Shown here: positions 2,310 to 64,000 of the stretch, in pieces | Position numbering within the stretch: the first letter of the stretch is position 1 | How the letters are laid out: each line of letters begins with the position of its first letter | Assembly (NCBI GenBank): GCA_963804645.1 | Contig: CAWDRG010000018.1 | Coordinates: forward strand, 46,116 to 110,115 | DNA from: an uncultured Bacillota bacterium | GTDB taxonomy: Bacteria > Sysuimicrobiota > Sysuimicrobiia > Sysuimicrobiales > Segetimicrobiaceae | DNA length: 64,000 bases | Direction: 5' to 3' | Notes under the pieces: model-generated | What the model saw: the letters and a program-made list of their open reading frames with translations, nothing else | Database searches by the model: none | What the model was told of the DNA's origin: nothing | Translations under genes and position numbers: made by a program

Positions 2310-2735
2310 TCATGCAGGCAGGATGCGAAATCCGAGCTCTCTTGCGGCACCGCGGAGACGGTCATCCAGGCTGAGAAATTCTAGACCTCGGATGGCTCGG
2401 CGTCCGGCCAGCGCGCTCGCGAGGTGGAGGGCGTCGAGCGTTCGGATCGGTTCCCGCGGGAGTGGACGGCGTGCACGTTCGAGCACTTCGTCGCCGAGCC
2501 GGAGCAGGGTCCATTGGCTGGCGGCCTCATTCAGTGCTGCACGACACTGGGCGGCATCACCTTCTTCGAGCGCGTTGAGGACAGTCGACCGAATTAGGAC
2601 GCGGTCGCACTCGACCAGGGTCAGCTCGGATGTGACTACGATGTCGGCACCGGCAATGGCGTCCCTCACAGAACCGCCCTCGGGTTCACCCAGGAGCCAC
2701 GAGAGCACCGCGCTTGACTCCGCGTACACGCTCAC
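2310..2735 (-). CDS. vapC: VapC-family PIN-domain toxin
   Basis: VYAESSAVLSWLLGE start, RTLDALHLASA, SLDDRL; overlaps antitoxin stop. Confidence 0.85.
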   Translation of the reverse strand: MSVYAESSAVLSWLLGEPEGGSVRDAIAGADIVVTSELTLVECDRVLIRSTVLNALEEGDAAQCRAALNEAASQWTLLRLGDEVLERARRPLPREPIRTLDALHLASALAGRRAIRGLEFLSLDDRLRGAARELGFRILPA

Positions 2736-3025
2736 CGAGCGCCTCGTTCCTGGTCGAGTAGCTCCCGGGAGGTGATCCCTCTGAGACGGTGTGGCATGAT
2801 CGGATAGCGAGTCGCGTCGTTCTGACCGCCTGCGGACGCGAGCCCCCGCCTCACGAGATCTCCGAGCCCCGGTGGGAGGTTGCTGAGTCCGCTCAGGTCA
2901 CCAGGCGGACCAACCTGCGCCACAACTTTCCCTCGATCTGTAACCAATACCGTCTCTCCCTGCCGCACGCGACGGAGGTACTCGCTGAGCCGGTTCTTCA
3001 ACTCGCGGACCCCAACGACAATCAT
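2732..3025 (-). CDS. Phd/YefM-family antitoxin
   Basis: MIVVGVRELKNRLSEYLRRVRQGETVLVTDRGKVVA. Confidence 0.9.
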   Translation of the reverse strand: MIVVGVRELKNRLSEYLRRVRQGETVLVTDRGKVVAQVGPPGDLSGLSNLPPGLGDLVRRGLASAGGQNDATRYPIMPHRLRGITSRELLDQERGAR

Positions 3026-3032
3026 GGGCAAA

Positions 3033-3062
3033 ATTGTAGCATCATGTGGCTACATTTTTCAA
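3033..3062 (-). promoter_or_regulatory. TA promoter with palindromic operator
   Basis: Minus TTGAAA-N18-TACAAT with TG extension, 7 nt before ATG; inverted repeat TGTAGC-N8-GCTACA at 3035-3054. Confidence 0.65.
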
Positions 3063-3181
3063 GCATCAGAATTTGCACAGAAACTGCCACTGCCGTCGGG
3101 TTCACCGCTGGCGGGGCATCGACGTCTCATGTCTCTGCGCATCACCGCGGTCGCGGGTTCACTGGCCCGTTGGCGTCGCGG

Positions 3182-5296
3182 TCAGGGCTCAAGCGGATCC
3201 AGCGGCTGCCCATCCTGCCGCAGTTCGAAGAACAGGTGCGGACCCGTACTCCATCCGGTGCTGCCGACCCGGCCGATGACCTGGCCGCGCCGCACACGGT
3301 CTCCGACGCGGACGTCGTACGACGAGAGATGCGAGTAGGTGGTCGACACGCCGTTGCCATGGTTGAGGACGATGAGCTTTCCGTTCGCGGGCATCTCGCC
3401 GGTGAAGATCACCGTGCCGTCGTCCGCGGCCTCGACGGGCGCTCCCCACGACGCCGCGATATCGATCCCAGTGTGAAACTCCGGCGTGTGAAAGATGGGA
3501 TGAACGCGCCACCCGTACCCGGAACTGACGGTCCCCTCGACCGGCCACGCGAGGCCGTCGTTCGGGAAGGAGGGGATCGCGCCGCCGTGCGGCCCCGGCG
3601 CCGCGCCGACGGCGATGGCGCGAATCTCTTCCGACTCGGCGTTGAGTTGGGCGAGTACCTCGCGCTCCTGCTCGACGATCCGCGCGCGCTGCGGATCGTC
3701 GGACTCAATCCGGACCGGCGCGGCGGCCTCGATCAACGGCGACCGGGACGGCGTGGGTCCTGCGTCCGGGCCGCTCGACATCGCGGACGACGGGGTCCCC
3801 CGCGTCTCGATCGCGACCGCGGCCGGCAGTCCACCCGGGAGCTGACCGCGCCCCGCGTTCTGGTCGAGGCCGATCTGGACCTCTACGGTCCGGTCCGTGC
3901 GTCCCGGGCCCGCGCCGACGCGCAGTACCCGGCCGAGCCAGACGTGTCCCGCATACCCGTCCACCGTCACCAGTGCCGCGCTGCCGACGCGGATCTTCGG
4001 AGCCGCCGCCGGGGGCACGTCCGCCGCCACCCAGGTCCGTCCCTGGATCGACAGGGCCATCAGGGTCTGGCCGCGGTGCACCGCTTCGCCTGCGGCGGCG
4101 GTGCTGCCCGTCACCCACCCGTCCACCGGGGCTCGGATGACGGTCTCGCCGAGGGCGACCTTGGCGGCTTCCAACGCGCGGTCGGCATCCACGGCCGCGA
4201 GCTGGGCGGCGGCCAGCGCCTGGGCGCGGAGCTGCGCGTCGGCGATCGTCGCCTCCGCTTGGCGCGTCAGCCGATCCTCGGAGGCGGCCGCCGCGTGCAC
4301 GACGGGCTGCGTCGACCGGGGCGTTGCGTGTGCGGCCGCGAGCTGCGCCTGCGCCACCCGCACGGCGGCGGTGGCCGCGTCGACGCGGGCCGACGCCGCG
4401 TCAGACGCCGCGGTGTCCGTGTCGACTTGATGCGCCGGAATCGCGCCGTCTGCGAGCAGGGTCCGATCCCGCGCGAGGCGCTGCGCCGCTGCGGCCTGGG
4501 CGGTTTCGGCCGTATCCAGCGCCGTCTGGGCCGCCGCGAGCGCGGCACTGGCCCGGGTCGCCGCGCGTCCATCCGGGGCGACGGGCGTCATCGTCGAGGA
4601 CGGAGCGGCCGCCGCGGTCTGAGCGTCGCGCACCGCCGCGGCAGCGCCAGCCGCCTGCGCGCGGGCCGCATCCAGGGCCTGCGAGTCGGCGGCCATCTCC
4701 CGCGGCGAGATCAATCCCTCTGCCAGGAGTGCGCTGTCGCGATCGAGCGTCTGCTGCGCCGCCGCGACCTGCGCGTCGGCGATCCGCCGCACGCGGGTTT
4801 CCGCGGCGGCCGCCTGCCGCTCGGCCTCGACGAACGCGGGTGGGGCGGACGCTGCGGCGTGCGGTGTGTGCAGGGGCGTGACGCGCAGCGGCGCGGCGCG
4901 CAGCGTCGTCAGTGCCGCGCGCACCTGGCTGCTGGCGGCGCGTTCCTGTGCCGCCAGCGCGGTCAACGAATCGCGGACGCGGGCGCGCGCCGCGCGGCTC
5001 TGCGCCGCGGCGCGCGCCAGGGCGGACCGCTCGTGCGCGGTGCTCAACGCGATCAGCACGGTCCCCGCCGTGACGTACTGACGGTCGACGGCGCGGACGC
5101 TGACCACCGTGCCGGCGATCGGCGCGCGCACCGGGGCGAACACGCCGGCGGTGCGCCCGCGGTCGGCCACGATGAGCCCCTGGGACGGCTGTCGCACCGT
5201 CCCCGTGCCCAGCAGCGCCGCGAGCAGCGCGACGCCGAGCAGCACCGCCGCGTACCGGGCCGCGCGCGGATGTGTGCACCACTGCCTCATGCGCAT
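3182..5296 (-). CDS. HlyD/EmrA-type membrane-fusion protein fused to a C-terminal M23 peptidase
   Basis: N-terminal TM, lipoyl half-motifs (VRAPIAGTV, IRAPVDGWV), Ala-rich coiled coils, beta-barrel, then HTGIDI...YSHL...STGPHL; AGGAG upstream of ATG 5296. Confidence 0.8.
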   Translation of the reverse strand: MRMRQWCTHPRAARYAAVLLGVALLAALLGTGTVRQPSQGLIVADRGRTAGVFAPVRAPIAGTVVSVRAVDRQYVTAGTVLIALSTAHERSALARAAAQSRAARARVRDSLTALAAQERAASSQVRAALTTLRAAPLRVTPLHTPHAAASAPPAFVEAERQAAAAETRVRRIADAQVAAAQQTLDRDSALLAEGLISPREMAADSQALDAARAQAAGAAAAVRDAQTAAAAPSSTMTPVAPDGRAATRASAALAAAQTALDTAETAQAAAAQRLARDRTLLADGAIPAHQVDTDTAASDAASARVDAATAAVRVAQAQLAAAHATPRSTQPVVHAAAASEDRLTRQAEATIADAQLRAQALAAAQLAAVDADRALEAAKVALGETVIRAPVDGWVTGSTAAAGEAVHRGQTLMALSIQGRTWVAADVPPAAAPKIRVGSAALVTVDGYAGHVWLGRVLRVGAGPGRTDRTVEVQIGLDQNAGRGQLPGGLPAAVAIETRGTPSSAMSSGPDAGPTPSRSPLIEAAAPVRIESDDPQRARIVEQEREVLAQLNAESEEIRAIAVGAAPGPHGGAIPSFPNDGLAWPVEGTVSSGYGWRVHPIFHTPEFHTGIDIAASWGAPVEAADDGTVIFTGEMPANGKLIVLNHGNGVSTTYSHLSSYDVRVGDRVRRGQVIGRVGSTGWSTGPHLFFELRQDGQPLDPLEP

Positions 5297-59995: not shown

Positions 59996-60840
59996 GCGCG
60001 GCCGTGGGACGGCCCGCGAGACGGGCGCCGGTGGGCGACCGGCCCGTGTGGTGGGTGTATGGGCTCGTCGCGGTGTTCGCTGCGCTCGTGCTCGGCATCG
60101 TGCTGTCGGTGTTGTTCAACTCGTTCGCCGCGACGTGGTTTGGCGGGTGGCTGCCCGACGCCTACACCACGAAGTGGTACCGGTTCGCGGTCACGGAGTT
60201 CGGGCTGGCGCAGGTGCTGTGGGTCACCGTCGAGGTTGGGCTGATCGTGACCGCCGTGGCGCTGGCGCTCGGGCTGCCCGCGGCGTACGTGCTGGCCCGG
60301 CGCCAGTTTCCCGGCAAGGGGCTCGTCCTCCTGGCGCTCGTGCTCCCGATGATGGTGCCGCCGATCACCTACGGCATCCCGCTCGCGGCGATGATCTACC
60401 GCGCGCGCCTCGGCGGATCGCTCGCCGGCGTGATCATCGTGAACATCGTCCCCGCGCTGCCGTTCGTGGTGCTGATCATGACGCCGTTCTTCGAGCAGAT
60501 CGATCCGAATCTTGAGCGCGCCGCCCGGACGCTCGGGGCCCGTGCCACGACGGTGTTTTCCCGCGTGCTGCTGCCGCTCGCGCTGCCGGGCGTGCTCGCG
60601 GCGGGGCTGTTGATCCTCGTGCGGACGATCGCGCTCTTCGAGCTCACGTTCCTCGTGTCGGGCGCACGGAGTCAGACGATCGTCGTCGCGCTCTACTACG
60701 CCGCGTTCGCGGCGGGGATCCGGCCCAGCCAGTCGATCGACGCGATGGCGGTCGTCTATATGGTCATGAGCCTCGTGCTGCTCCTGACGGCGCTCCGATT
60801 CGTCAACCCCGTCAACATGGTGATGCGCGTCCGGCGCTGA
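59992..60840 (+). CDS. ABC permease (PotC-like)
   Basis: IDPNLERAARTLGA EAA loop; polytopic. Confidence 0.88.
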   Translation: MSAAVGRPARRAPVGDRPVWWVYGLVAVFAALVLGIVLSVLFNSFAATWFGGWLPDAYTTKWYRFAVTEFGLAQVLWVTVEVGLIVTAVALALGLPAAYVLARRQFPGKGLVLLALVLPMMVPPITYGIPLAAMIYRARLGGSLAGVIIVNIVPALPFVVLIMTPFFEQIDPNLERAARTLGARATTVFSRVLLPLALPGVLAAGLLILVRTIALFELTFLVSGARSQTIVVALYYAAFAAGIRPSQSIDAMAVVYMVMSLVLLLTALRFVNPVNMVMRVRR

Positions 60841-61055
60841 CCCCGTTCCTATCGCTGGCGCCGTCGCCGGTTCGGTTCCCGGTCATCTGGACTCCTTCGA
60901 ACGAAGCGACCCGGCCTCCAGTGGTGGCCTGCGTGTTTCTCCTATGAAGGCTTTTGTCAAGATACTATGAAGGGCCATAGCGGAGGATAGAACGAGTCGC
61001 TGCTGGTAGGCTCCTCTCGCCCTAGTCCGCGAGACAAGGAGAAAGGAGCATACGG

Positions 61056-62207
61056 ATGACCACAGCGACTCGCACGAGTCAGTATACCAGCACGGCGTCT
61101 GAGGTAGCGCAGGTACTGTACGTTGCGTTCGAGTTGGGTGTCAGCGAGTGGAAGATCGGCTTCACCAAGGATCTCGAGACCAAGCCGCGCGTACGAGTGG
61201 TGCCGGCACGAGAATTGAAGCAGTTAGCCCGAGAGATCACCGCCACGAAGCAATGGTTCGCACTCCCGGCGAACGCAACGGTGCGGAGCTGTTACGAAGC
61301 AGGGCGCGACGGATTTTGGCTGCATCGGCACCTCGTGGCAGAGGGGATCGACAATCGAGTGGTGGACTCGGCGAGCATCGAGGTGACCCGGCGCAAGCGA
61401 CGTGCAAAGTCCGACGGATTGGACGCGCGCAAATTGCTCACGATGCTGCTTCGGTCCTGTGCCGGCGAGAAGAAGGTGTGGAGCGTTGTGCGGGTTCCCA
61501 CGGTCGAGGAAGAGGATCGACGCCAGCTGCACCGCGAGTTGCGTACCTTGAAACAGGAACGGACGCGGGTGGTGAACCGAATGCAAGGTTTGCTGGCGAG
61601 CCAGGGGCTGCGGCTCCCGAAGGGCCGCGACGTGAGTGGGCAGTTCGACGCGATGCGGTTGTGGGATGGAACACCGCTTCCCTCGGGATTGCGGGCGCGG
61701 TTGCAGCGGGAGTGGGAGCATGCGCAGTTCTTGCATGCCAAGATCCTGGAGTTGGAGCGACAGCGCTCTCAGGCGATCAAACACGATCGCAGTAAGGCCG
61801 TCGACAAGGTGCGACAGTTGCTGCGTCTGCGGGCCATCGGAGAGACCGGGGCGTGGGTGTATGTGAACGAATTCTTCGGCTGGCGTCAGTTCAACAATCG
61901 GAAGGAAGTGGGCGCCGCTGCCGGCCTTGTACCGACGCCGCACCAGAGCGGAGACGGCAAGCACGAACGAGGAATCAGTAAGGCGGGGAACCGACACATC
62001 CGAGCAGTCGCCATCCAACTGGCCTGGGCTTGGCTGCGATACCAACCCGGCAGCCGGTTGAGCAAGTGGTTCGAAGAACGGTTCAGCCGCGGGGGGCCCC
62101 GCGCGCGGAAGGTCGGTATCGTCGCCCTGGCGCGCAAGTTGTTGATCGACCTGTGGCGGTTCCTCAGGGATGGAACGGTTCCCGAGGGTGCGCTGCTGAA
62201 AGCGTAA
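61056..62207 (+). CDS. IS110 family recombinase (element A)
   Basis: YVAFELG, CYEAG, KSDGLDA, GLVPTPHQSG, GISKAGN, IVALARKL. Confidence 0.93.
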   Translation: MTTATRTSQYTSTASEVAQVLYVAFELGVSEWKIGFTKDLETKPRVRVVPARELKQLAREITATKQWFALPANATVRSCYEAGRDGFWLHRHLVAEGIDNRVVDSASIEVTRRKRRAKSDGLDARKLLTMLLRSCAGEKKVWSVVRVPTVEEEDRRQLHRELRTLKQERTRVVNRMQGLLASQGLRLPKGRDVSGQFDAMRLWDGTPLPSGLRARLQREWEHAQFLHAKILELERQRSQAIKHDRSKAVDKVRQLLRLRAIGETGAWVYVNEFFGWRQFNNRKEVGAAAGLVPTPHQSGDGKHERGISKAGNRHIRAVAIQLAWAWLRYQPGSRLSKWFEERFSRGGPRARKVGIVALARKLLIDLWRFLRDGTVPEGALLKA

Positions 62208-62499
62208 TCAGCAGTATCGACATACTCATCTCAAACTTTTGCGAAGGGGGTACGGAAGCGCTGAGCTCAAGAGCTGGTGGAAGGCGCTCGCAGCCAAGGG
62301 GCGGGCATCAACCGATGTCAAGATGGGGCGCCTTCCTCCAGGCCTGTCTAATTCGCCGCAAAGCGAATATGGAATGTGGTGACTGGTCCAGCGTGGACCA
62401 GCACGGATAGAAGTTGGTTCGAGGCCATCCGGCCCGACCAGGCGAAACAGGCCGCCAGCGACCTTGGAGTCAGCGCGAGATGAATGATCGATCGAGGGG
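62208..62499 (+). ncRNA. Predicted bridge/seek RNA of element A (boundaries approximate)
   Basis: Stem CTGG-T-GGAAGGCGC/GCGCCTTCC-T-CCAG with internal loop matching the target flank; ATAGAAG (62407-13) matches own right end. Confidence 0.7.
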
Positions 62500-62524
62500 T
62501 TGACAGCGGCGGCCCTCATAGAAG

Positions 62525-62905
62525 TCCCCATCTTGCGCGTCTGCCGGCCGCAATTGGAGGTCCTTCCCCGCGACAAGGCAGTCAAGGGGCGCGTAGCGAG
62601 CCGAAGGCCTCGCCCTTGACGGGCGTGGGAGCGGGGATAGGGTTTTGCAGCGCCGGCAGACGCCGGTCCCATTCCCGCCCGCCTGGACCTCGTTGCCACA
62701 TTCAGGATACGCCCGGTCACACACCTCCGCTGGCTACGGCATCGATCTGTCTGCCTTGCATTAGCAGAGCCTAGTCATTCTCCTATTGGTGCCCGTCAAG
62801 ATGCCCGGCACACGTTATGGTTTGACCCACGGCTCCCTAATCTCTCTAGAGGGCCTTCGTGCCCAGAAACAACAAGAGGGCAGCCGGGGACGTGATTCTG
62901 TGGCA
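62525..62905 (-). ncRNA. Predicted bridge/seek RNA region of element B (boundaries approximate)
   Basis: 3' non-coding end; minus ATAGGAGAA (62786-62778) identical to B right end (60945-60937). Confidence 0.6.
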
Positions 62906-63946
62906 TCAGGACGCAGCCTCTTCTGCGGGCCGCGCTGGCCGATCCTCATAGCACCGCCGTTCTGTCCACACGGTCCACGCGAGCTGAGCCAACTTCCGCG
63001 CGGTGCACACACGAGCATCATGGGCACCGCGGCGGGCCTTGATCTGATCGTAGTAGCGGCGCACCGAGCTCGACGCCCGAAGCGCTGGCCCGACGGCTTC
63101 AATGAACGCCCATCGGAGCCACTTGTTGCCTTGCTTGGTCAGAGGCCCGTGGTACACGCGCGTATTGGACGCGTAGGTCGAAGGGATGAGCCCCGTGTAG
63201 CAGGCAAACTTCTTCGCATTGCGAAACCGCGTCATGTCATCGACTTCATACCGCAGCAGCACGGCAAAGAAGGGACCGACCCCAGGTAGACTCGCGAGCC
63301 TGGTGACGATCTCGTCGCCTTTGGCGAATTGGGCGATCAGGTGATCCGTTGCGATGATCCGCTCTCGCAGCGTCGTCAGAAGACTGAGATCATCGCGCAA
63401 GAGCTGCCCGTCGGGTGCGGGGAGGGCCAGCTGTTGCAACCACGCGAGGCCAGCTTTCCCATAGAGGTCGGTCACATCCGGGATCTCGATCGCATGCTGG
63501 GCGAGGAGAGCGTGGATGCGGTTTTTCACCATCGTCTGGACCCGTACGAAAAACATCCGCTGCCGGAGCACGCGTTTGATCGCTCTGGTCTCCTTGGATG
63601 GCGCGTACGCTTCCGGGATCAGATCTGCCCGCAAGAGATGAGCGAGCGTTTGAGAATCGATAGTATCCGTCTTGATGCGCGCGTCGGCGATGGCGCGGAC
63701 CCTTGCGGGGTGTGCTAGAACGACGTCGTCAACGAGCTCATCCAACCAGTCGTACACAGGGCCCCAGTTATAGGTCGCTTCCACCACGGCCTTGATGGGT
63801 TCCTGATAGTTGGCAAAAAACTTCCGCAGCTCATCGCCCGAGCTCGGGATCCGTTTGCGTGCGAGCACCTTCCCAGCTTCGTCCATGATCGTCACGTGCG
63901 TCGCTGTGCGATGTGCGTCTACCCCTGCGTACAGCACCTTGTCCAC
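62906..63946 (-). CDS. IS110 family recombinase (element B)
   Basis: YAGVDAH, VVEAT, KTDTIDS, LPGVG, GLIPSTYAS, TKQGNKWLRWA, ARKL. Confidence 0.93.
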   Translation of the reverse strand: MDKVLYAGVDAHRTATHVTIMDEAGKVLARKRIPSSGDELRKFFANYQEPIKAVVEATYNWGPVYDWLDELVDDVVLAHPARVRAIADARIKTDTIDSQTLAHLLRADLIPEAYAPSKETRAIKRVLRQRMFFVRVQTMVKNRIHALLAQHAIEIPDVTDLYGKAGLAWLQQLALPAPDGQLLRDDLSLLTTLRERIIATDHLIAQFAKGDEIVTRLASLPGVGPFFAVLLRYEVDDMTRFRNAKKFACYTGLIPSTYASNTRVYHGPLTKQGNKWLRWAFIEAVGPALRASSSVRRYYDQIKARRGAHDARVCTARKLAQLAWTVWTERRCYEDRPARPAEEAAS

Positions 63947-64000
63947 CTCCCGCTTGTTCCGTCTTGGGTCCCAGTACTTCGCGGTGGACTGGCGCCTTCA

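Follow-up and report, generated by a model that had tools for sequence, protein, structure and literature searches.

An IS1111-type insertion sequence lies in the right end of a second IS110-family element at a site matched by its predicted guide RNA

The window analysed here is a stretch of 64,000 nucleotides from an uncultured Bacillota bacterium (assembly GCA_963804645.1, contig CAWDRG010000018.1, positions 46,116 to 110,115 of the forward strand), and its last ~3.1 kb contain two nested insertion sequences (ISs) of the IS110 family, termed element A and element B. Between 60937 and 64000, two intact IS110-family transposase genes are encoded on opposite strands, that of A on the plus strand and that of B on the minus strand, and an ABC-transporter permease gene upstream of the nested pair ends at 60840. 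The two transposases share 24% protein identity. Judging from their sequences, A and B are two unrelated members of the IS110 superfamily that both have the IS1111 layout, in which subterminal inverted repeats are combined with a 3-bp extension on the right (AAG in A, GAG in B) and an extended non-coding region 3' of the gene. The end of the window is also the end of contig C18 of the assembly (G000, 22 contigs), and there are no assembled bases past 64000. The 22 contigs contain no second copy of A or B. According to tblastn, they encode many other IS110-family genes, and partial matches are confined to one solo A-type right end with 83% identity (C10:198265-198433) and two copies of a hairpin module of B with 81-83% identity. 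At least part of the stretch is contained in 20 public runs, which provide DNA contigs only; contigs of four of these runs (X1, X2, X9, and X10) were aligned, with X9 and X10 covering the stretch only partly.

Members of the IS1111 family have been described as having subterminal inverted repeats of usually 11-13 bp with right and left extensions of 3 bp and 7 (or 6) bp, respectively, a longer non-coding region downstream of the transposase gene, and a transposase of 330-350 amino acids (aa) with the motif GL-P----S(t)G (PMC11187229). Element A is a complete IS1111-like IS of 1563 bp at 60962-62524 (plus strand) that is bounded by AAG at 60959-60961 and 62522-62524, as had been stated in the initial annotation. 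Its left subterminal inverted repeat CTATGAAGGGCC (60965-60976) follows a 3-bp extension ATA, and its right end (62500-62524) consists of a TTGACA box at 62500-62505 preceded by G rather than C, the subterminal repeat GGCCCTCATAG at 62511-62521, and the 3-bp extension AAG, the right terminus reading CATAGAAG. With 11-12 bp and one indel between them, the two repeats fit the IS1111 type. On the left, conservation within the A family extends over ATA/ATC and the shared AG only, corresponding to an extension of 3-5 bp. The transposase gene (61056-62207, plus strand) encodes 383 aa and thus exceeds the length reported for the family, whereas its motif GLVPTPHQSG fits the family consensus. The protein matches Transposase_20 (PF02371) with 53 bits, which is above the Pfam cut-off, and DEDD_Tnp_IS110 (PF01548) with 22 bits, which is below the cut-off of 29 and indicates that the N-terminal domain of A is divergent. 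The gene is flanked by 94 bp of non-coding DNA on its 5' side and 317 bp on its 3' side, the longer side being downstream as in the IS1111 family, and a TTGACA-18 nt-GATACT arrangement can be read across the joined ends of A.

The limits of A are defined by comparison. The closest copy in 60 related genomes (locus L022) is 73% identical and has the same terminal bases within unrelated flanks, ten more relatives from public genome contigs have the same termini as A in other flanks, and a 99.6% identical copy is found in the metagenome contig L063. None of these copies includes the segment 60937-60958, which rules out a longer form of A that would extend over the 24 bp on its left. A skip of exactly 1563 bp in contigs of the public runs, described below, agrees with these ends.

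The body of element B, which holds the transposase gene, the non-coding region 3' of it, and the greater part of the left end, is located at 62525-64000 on the minus strand, and the contig ends about 10 bp before its left tip. In X1, record 8 extends 89 nt past 64000. The transposase gene (62906-63946, minus strand) encodes 346 aa, which is within the range of the IS1111 family, and the protein scores above the Pfam cut-offs for both DEDD_Tnp_IS110 (73 bits) and Transposase_20 (77 bits); its motif GLIPSTYASN has S followed by N, in contrast to the S(t)G of the consensus. Upstream of the gene there are ~55-65 bp of non-coding DNA, of which 7 bp of the left subterminal repeat are visible at 63994-64000 (GCCTTCA on the plus strand), and downstream there are 404 bp, made up of 62525-62905 and a 23-bp terminus that lies on the other side of A. 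This severed right terminus (60939-60961, minus strand) contains a CTTGACA box (60961-60955), the complete right subterminal repeat CTATGAAGGC (60942-60951), and the 3-bp extension GAG (60941-60939). When 60962-62524 is removed, the minus strand reads ...CAAGATGGGGA^CTTGACAAAAGCCTTCATAGGAG as written in the initial annotation, the caret here and below marking the insertion point, and A splits the right end of B between GGGGA and CTTGACA. The restored sequence GGGGA^CTTGACAAAAGCCTTCATAGGAG fits the layout GGGG..TTGAC(A/G)-N4-9-(T)TCAT(A/G)G-RRG, which is found in all four B relatives with readable ends (L003, L006, L007, and L013; 49-67% protein identity), and these relatives start with ..ATGAA... 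at the opposite end.

Two further clues by which the initial annotation had tied the 24 bp left of A to B also hold: TGAAGGC (60945-60951) is the inverse of GCCTTCA at 63994-64000, and ATAGGAGAA recurs in the non-coding end of B, within 62775-62787 of the minus strand. The latter recurrence is explained by a donor-type guide segment of B, AATAGGAGAATGA (62775-62787, minus strand), which copies the right terminus of B by matching ATAGGAG and the following AA, and which covaries with the terminus in L003, L013, and L006. A predicted right-target guide, TGTTTC (62866-62871, minus strand), is complementary to GAAACA, consisting of the last base of B and the flank 60938-60934, and the right-flank match at the equivalent position is 7 nt long in L003, 8 nt in L013, and 6 nt in L006. 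Based on the family comparison and on its own guide, the right end of B is at 60939. The assignment of the segment to B thus stands for 60939-60961, whereas its outer limit has to be moved two bases inward from 60937, since the AA belongs to the flank or target. As the closest B copy in the 60 related genomes is only 70% identical, the left tip of B could not be borrowed from a relative, and a left flank predicted from the left-guide segment of B (62842-62851) returned nothing usable in the genome or at contig ends. The guide-RNA region of B (about 62770-62885) is located outside the insertion of A, and the view that A left the terminus, the -35 box, and the recombinase of B intact is correct at the sequence level.

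Uninterrupted copies of B are present in two of the four aligned runs. X1 and X2 each contain one contig in which 1563 bp are skipped and 60958 is joined to 62522. In X1, this contig (record 7, 1257 nt) agrees with B at every position of 62522-63712 and continues with 24 (+3) letters of the terminus and 42 other letters, and the flank changes at about 60935. Hence, B does not end at 62525 and continues through the 23-bp piece into a different flank. The flank letters in X1 match G000:C11:242662-242678 exactly, and in the assembly this region of C11 (242640-242680) is an unoccupied B site, ..CGCTGTAGTTTCTC^GTTGAAAGC. The presence of B without A at C11 in X1 together with the empty site in the assembly indicates a second B locus in part of the population and recent movement of B; the C11 site shows a presence/absence polymorphism of B within the sampled population. 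In addition, record 3 of X1 bridges the window flank, the B terminus, and the left end of A, and this left junction is present in contigs of both X1 and X2. Family layout, uninterrupted B copies, and the guide segments of B itself thus bear out the nesting that had been proposed from the sequence of the window.

The position of A within B corresponds to a predicted guide RNA encoded by A. Alignment of the 3' non-coding regions of 12 members of the A family and folding with RNAalifold revealed a conserved structured RNA of the seekRNA/bridge-RNA type at 62274-62458 (plus strand), with an outer stem formed by 62274-79/62453-58 and a stem closing the target loop formed by 62280-89/62326-35. In the alignment, 91.9% of cells are paired and 13 of 30 pairs have compensatory changes; none of 500 shuffles reached the observed value, and slid controls had 36-48% of cells paired. 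The first internal loop contains a predicted left-target guide of 9 nt just 5' of the closing stem (GATGTCAAG, 62314-62322, plus strand), which is the complement of the bottom strand and matches the left flank up to the AG core. Its TGTCAAG is identical to the left flank at 60955-60961 and is the reverse complement of the CTTGACA box of B. When U.G and G.T pairs are allowed, the left guide matches its own flank over 5-9 contiguous nt (mean 7.1) in all ten copies with a readable left flank, versus a mean of 2.98 nt for 98 non-cognate guide/flank pairs, among which the maximum of 8 occurs between two elements with similar targets. The left guide of A itself matches 7 nt of its own flank versus 2 nt of every other flank.

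A guide for the right flank is located ~15-25 nt upstream of the left guide and is clear in L036, L037, L041, L042, and L048 (6-10 nt). In A, the candidate is GGGGC (62298-62302, plus strand), the complement of the top strand, which would pair with the core G and TCCC with one G.T pair. With the complement of the top strand located 5' of that of the bottom strand, the two segments are ordered as described for IS1111 seekRNAs (PMC11187229). The second loop holds a donor-type segment (GGATAGAAG, 62405-62413, plus strand), whose ATAGAAG matches the right terminus of A and which is invariant in the family alignment. The RNA of A is thus predicted to specify TGTCAAG^YCCC, the reverse complement of GGGRCTTGACA, which in B reads GGGGA^CTTGACA. 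This match between guide and site, which was absent from the initial annotation, would account for the presence of A at this position.

Within the A family, four members with different phyla-level labels of metagenome-assembled genomes (L035, L036, L039, and L041; 52-76% protein identity to A) have one left guide in common, GCGCGTTAG, and sit at ..CG(T/C)(T/C)AG^G(C/G)CG.. sites. This common guide reflects either a conserved target or an inherited guide.

A and its close relatives are found in right ends of further IS110-family elements. When metagenomes were scanned with a 19-base piece of the left junction, three contigs (L062, L063, and L064) were retrieved. In L063, the 99.6% identical full-length copy of A is located at GTTGGGG^CTTGACAAGACTCTCATAGG, and an IS110-family open reading frame (ORF) on the opposite strand runs straight into it. 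L062 contains a shortened A-like copy with 91% identity beside a terminus, ..CTTGACAGCAGCAGCCATCATAGAAG, that is a right tip of the A-family type, and L064 contains an A relative with 79% protein identity that has the guide CTATCAAG beside CCTGTCAAG. In X2, the letters after the right end of A are TCCCC and then a 22-letter stretch that agrees fully with the interior side of the right end in another IS110-family element on contig C1 (element C), and the respective site of element C is unoccupied in the assembly. X9 shows a different flank followed by 60937-60961 and A, and contains no B gene at ≥90% identity. In total, a terminus of the subterminal-repeat type follows 13-20 bp beyond the box in at least four of eight contexts of A or A-like copies. 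Wherever the orientation of the host can be read, which applies to B in the window and to the host in L063 (element D), A is inserted in the opposite orientation. The genome contains three uninterrupted exact sites; two of them, one on C1 and one on C10, fall within recognizable right ends of IS110-family elements.

The right end of A itself lacks such a site. CTTGACA is the right-end box in 10 of 11 A relatives, all of which have other guides. By contrast, the box reads GTTGACA in A as well as in the L063 copy and the L064 element, and on the opposite strand this form lacks the AG core of the guide-specified site. These three elements are related, and GTTGACA counts as one observation rather than three.

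Several of these loci show additional features. Element D in L063 (1960-3440, minus strand) has a long non-coding region upstream of its gene, and its reading frame apparently stops at the TGA within CTTGACA; the insertion of A replaces this stop, and the frame continues into A as an ORF of 591 aa, so that the transposase of the host may be disabled. In L064, another IS110-family element (220-1835, 27% identical to B) is located inside the 5' untranslated region of the A relative, forming a further level of nesting. Element C is an IS110-family element with a 446-aa protein (G000:C1:149400-151140, corresponding to 2400-4140 of locus L058) and subterminal repeats TATGAGAGTC and GACTCTCATA; its 3' region holds GATGTCAAGCA, which is complementary to its own right flank CTGCTTGACAC. 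It is found where an IS256/Mutator-type transposase gene has its 3' end, and since the ORF of this gene continues into C, element C may in turn be nested within the end of a different IS. The solo right end of the A type at C10:198265-198433 (minus strand) consists of the second RNA loop and the tip GGGGCTTGACAGCAGCGCCCTCATAGAAG, has neither a transposase gene nor a target loop, and contains an unoccupied perfect site for the guides of A.

Taken together, the anatomy of both elements, the uninterrupted form of B, the covariation of guides and flanks, and the repeated nesting in different hosts make it very probable that A was inserted into the right end of B by its own RNA guide, both elements having the IS1111 architecture. 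In the proposed history, B would have been inserted first, 98 bp downstream of the ABC-permease gene, and A would then have entered the right end of B by the RNA-guided mechanism of IS110/IS1111 elements. The loop of the A RNA would act through the segment identical to the left flank, which ends in the AG core, and through the short complement of the right flank upstream of it. The specified sequence TGTCAAG^YCCC corresponds to a -35-type box that appears to be kept ~15-20 bp inside the right tip of IS110/IS1111-type elements, and a guide specifying this box would bring A into other IS110-family right ends in an orientation opposite to that of the host. Recombination at the AG core would leave the last 23 bp of the host intact beyond A, together with the box, subterminal repeat, and 3-bp extension that they contain. 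A circle intermediate, a promoter at the circle junction, and the joint action of RNA and protein are presumed by analogy with the family.

Some observations weigh against this guided nesting. An Rfam scan of 60800-64000 yielded 0 matches at E ≤1. The right-target guide of A comprises 5 nt versus GTCCC, and a free search for it did not rise above background or unrelated flanks, suggesting that specificity would depend mainly on the 7-nt left guide. The predicted left guide of B matches the left side of the C11 site over only 3 nt in a row, or at 6 of 7 positions if wobble pairs are allowed. Regarding the contigs, none of those listed bridges the right junction of A at 62524/62525, which consequently rests on the assembly itself, and A is repeated in the sample, with a depth of 12.2 versus 5.1 for B in X1. 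The short sides of the skip joints measure 24 and 27 letters and fall into a class that needs caution; a terminus is expected to give a short side of this length (<30 letters), and the caveat that the joints could stem from another organism is removed because the flank was traced to the same genome. Finally, A or A-like copies in X1 (record 5) and X10 are not accompanied by a recognizable IS terminus, and the flank of A in record 5 was not found in the genome.

The initial annotation had further suggested that B could move together with A. In such a functional composite, the transposase and guide RNA of B would use the left end and the severed 23-bp terminus and would move ~3.1 kb with A as a hitch-hiker. 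The gene and the RNA region of B are intact, as are its -35-type box, subterminal repeat, and 3-bp extension, B was recently active as deduced from its presence at C11 in X1, and circles of modular content with extra DNA are known for the IS110-family element ISPpu9 (PMC12288879). Nevertheless, composite movement is considered rather unlikely, as the sole second B locus seen carries B without A, no circle junction is seen in the contigs examined, and the left tip of B is absent from the assembly. The combination of a B-type terminus and A in a different flank in X9 could be taken as a trace of such movement; since X9 is devoid of a B gene at ≥90% identity, its host would be another element, which points to repeated targeting instead.

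A low probability is also assigned to the view that A is not aimed at IS ends at all and recognizes an ~11-nt motif, TGTCAAG^YCCC, that resembles a -35 box, so that IS110-family right ends are hit incidentally. The effective guide of A is short, the copies in X1 record 5 and X10 stand beside sequences without a recognizable IS terminus, and from base composition alone such motifs are expected on the order of ten times in 5.3 Mb (an estimate), versus only three uninterrupted ones found. Two of these three, however, are in IS110-family right ends, and the termini beyond the box in at least half of the eight A contexts and the missing site-creating C in the right ends of A and L064, which is present in 10 of 11 relatives with other guides, also disagree with incidental hits.

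It is very improbable that the arrangement is an assembly artefact in which a chimeric join through the repeated A connects a 23-bp piece and a B body that are not contiguous in any cell. The multiple copies of A in the sample, the unspanned position 62524/62525, and the break of contig C18 inside B would be compatible with such a join. On the other hand, the left junction of flank, B terminus, and A is present in X1 and X2, a severed B terminus beside A requires a B-type host on the other side, and L063 has an equal architecture in an independent assembly and another host. Two independent neighbouring insertions in a common hot spot, with B ending at 62525 and the 24 bp being target DNA, can practically be dismissed: targets are often common to IS110-family elements, but uninterrupted B continues through the 23-bp piece into an unrelated flank, this piece carries the subterminal repeat of B and matches its donor-type guide, and the right-flank guide of B matches the bases beyond 60939 and not those at 62524.

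If guided nesting of A in B is accepted, a more far-reaching proposal is possible yet doubtful, namely that the A lineage is a dedicated parasite of IS110-family elements, with a guide set against the -35 box GGGRCTTGACA, protected from itself by GTTGACA, and able to ride with its host because the 23 terminal bp of the latter are preserved. For such a parasite, the conserved right-end -35 box might tentatively be regarded as a harmless landing pad that is available in multiple copies.

Among characterized elements, ISEc11, ISKpn4, ISPst6, and ISPa11 are IS1111-family ISs with a 3' seekRNA or bridge RNA (Siddiquee et al. 2024, PMC11187229; Durrant et al. 2024, PMC11208160). A and B resemble them in the DEDD-type transposase, the subterminal repeats, the 3-bp right extension, and the long 3' non-coding region, and, as far as can be predicted, also in a structured RNA with ordered target complements, in site and orientation specificity, and in the -35-type box in the right end. 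A differs from them in its protein of 383 aa, whose N-terminal domain is below the Pfam cut-off, in its left extension of 3-5 bp instead of 6-7 bp, and in its target, which is the right end of other IS110-family elements.

That IS1111-type elements target the ends of other mobile elements is already known. IS1383 reportedly integrates into the inverted repeats of IS1384, as is attributed to Muller et al., and IS4321/IS5075 are said to home to terminal inverted repeats in transposons of the Tn21 family. As with IS1383 and IS1384, homing of an IS110/IS1111-type element to the ends of another mobile element gives rise to nested elements in the present case. In contrast, the hosts of IS1383 and IS4321 belong to other transposon families and offer a terminal inverted repeat as the target, whereas the hosts of A are fellow members of the IS110 superfamily (B, C, D, and an A-type end) and the target is an internal -35-type box. 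Since the target is internal to the right end of the host, the host's own terminus survives distal to A. An IS110/IS1111 element aimed at the right end or the -35 box of fellow IS110-family elements was not found in a non-exhaustive search of the literature. In Pseudomonas putida KT2440, ISPpu9 carries the ssr9 module and has been reported to form circles that differ in their modular content (Pares-Guillen et al. 2025, PMC12288879). This is an IS110-family precedent for extra DNA being moved between recognized ends; unlike in the composite considered above, which is a possibility only, the passenger is a small-RNA module and not a second autonomous IS.

The locus exemplifies, in nature, a mobile element that homes to the ends of others, the site being a promoter-like motif that would be spelled by its own guide RNA. 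It offers a natural worked example for the setting of the landing site by the programmable guide of an IS1111-type element. It also illustrates that guide segments can be read from the covariation of guides and flanks in uncultured soil bacteria. Guides aimed at the ends of sister elements can build nested IS piles that break metagenome assemblies, as C18 ends inside B. For annotation, this means that the 23 bp to the left of A belong to B. Should self-avoidance and hitch-hiking prove true, the system would exemplify both competition and cooperation between RNA-guided transposons and would provide natural guide/target pairs to probe the rules of IS1111-type recombinases.

A remaining feature of B is the hairpin module of ~110-135 nt in its 3' non-coding region (62550-62685, minus strand), which is without counterpart in the closest relatives of B and common to other IS110-family elements. 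Further copies are located at G000:C10:191383-191489, G000:C15:251400-251507, and L017:1501-1604, and a diverged copy is present in L064 (~3380-3510). The module has the conserved sequence GTCAAGGRC ... GCCTTCGGC ... CCTTGAC and 33 predicted pairs, 6 of which show compensatory changes among four copies. It was ruled out as a target of A because its AGTCAAG is followed by GGGG and not by YCCC. In several IS110-family elements with proteins of only ~26% identity, the module is placed after the guide-RNA region and before the right tip; its DNA is 81-83% identical, and it may represent a small mobile or recombining module.

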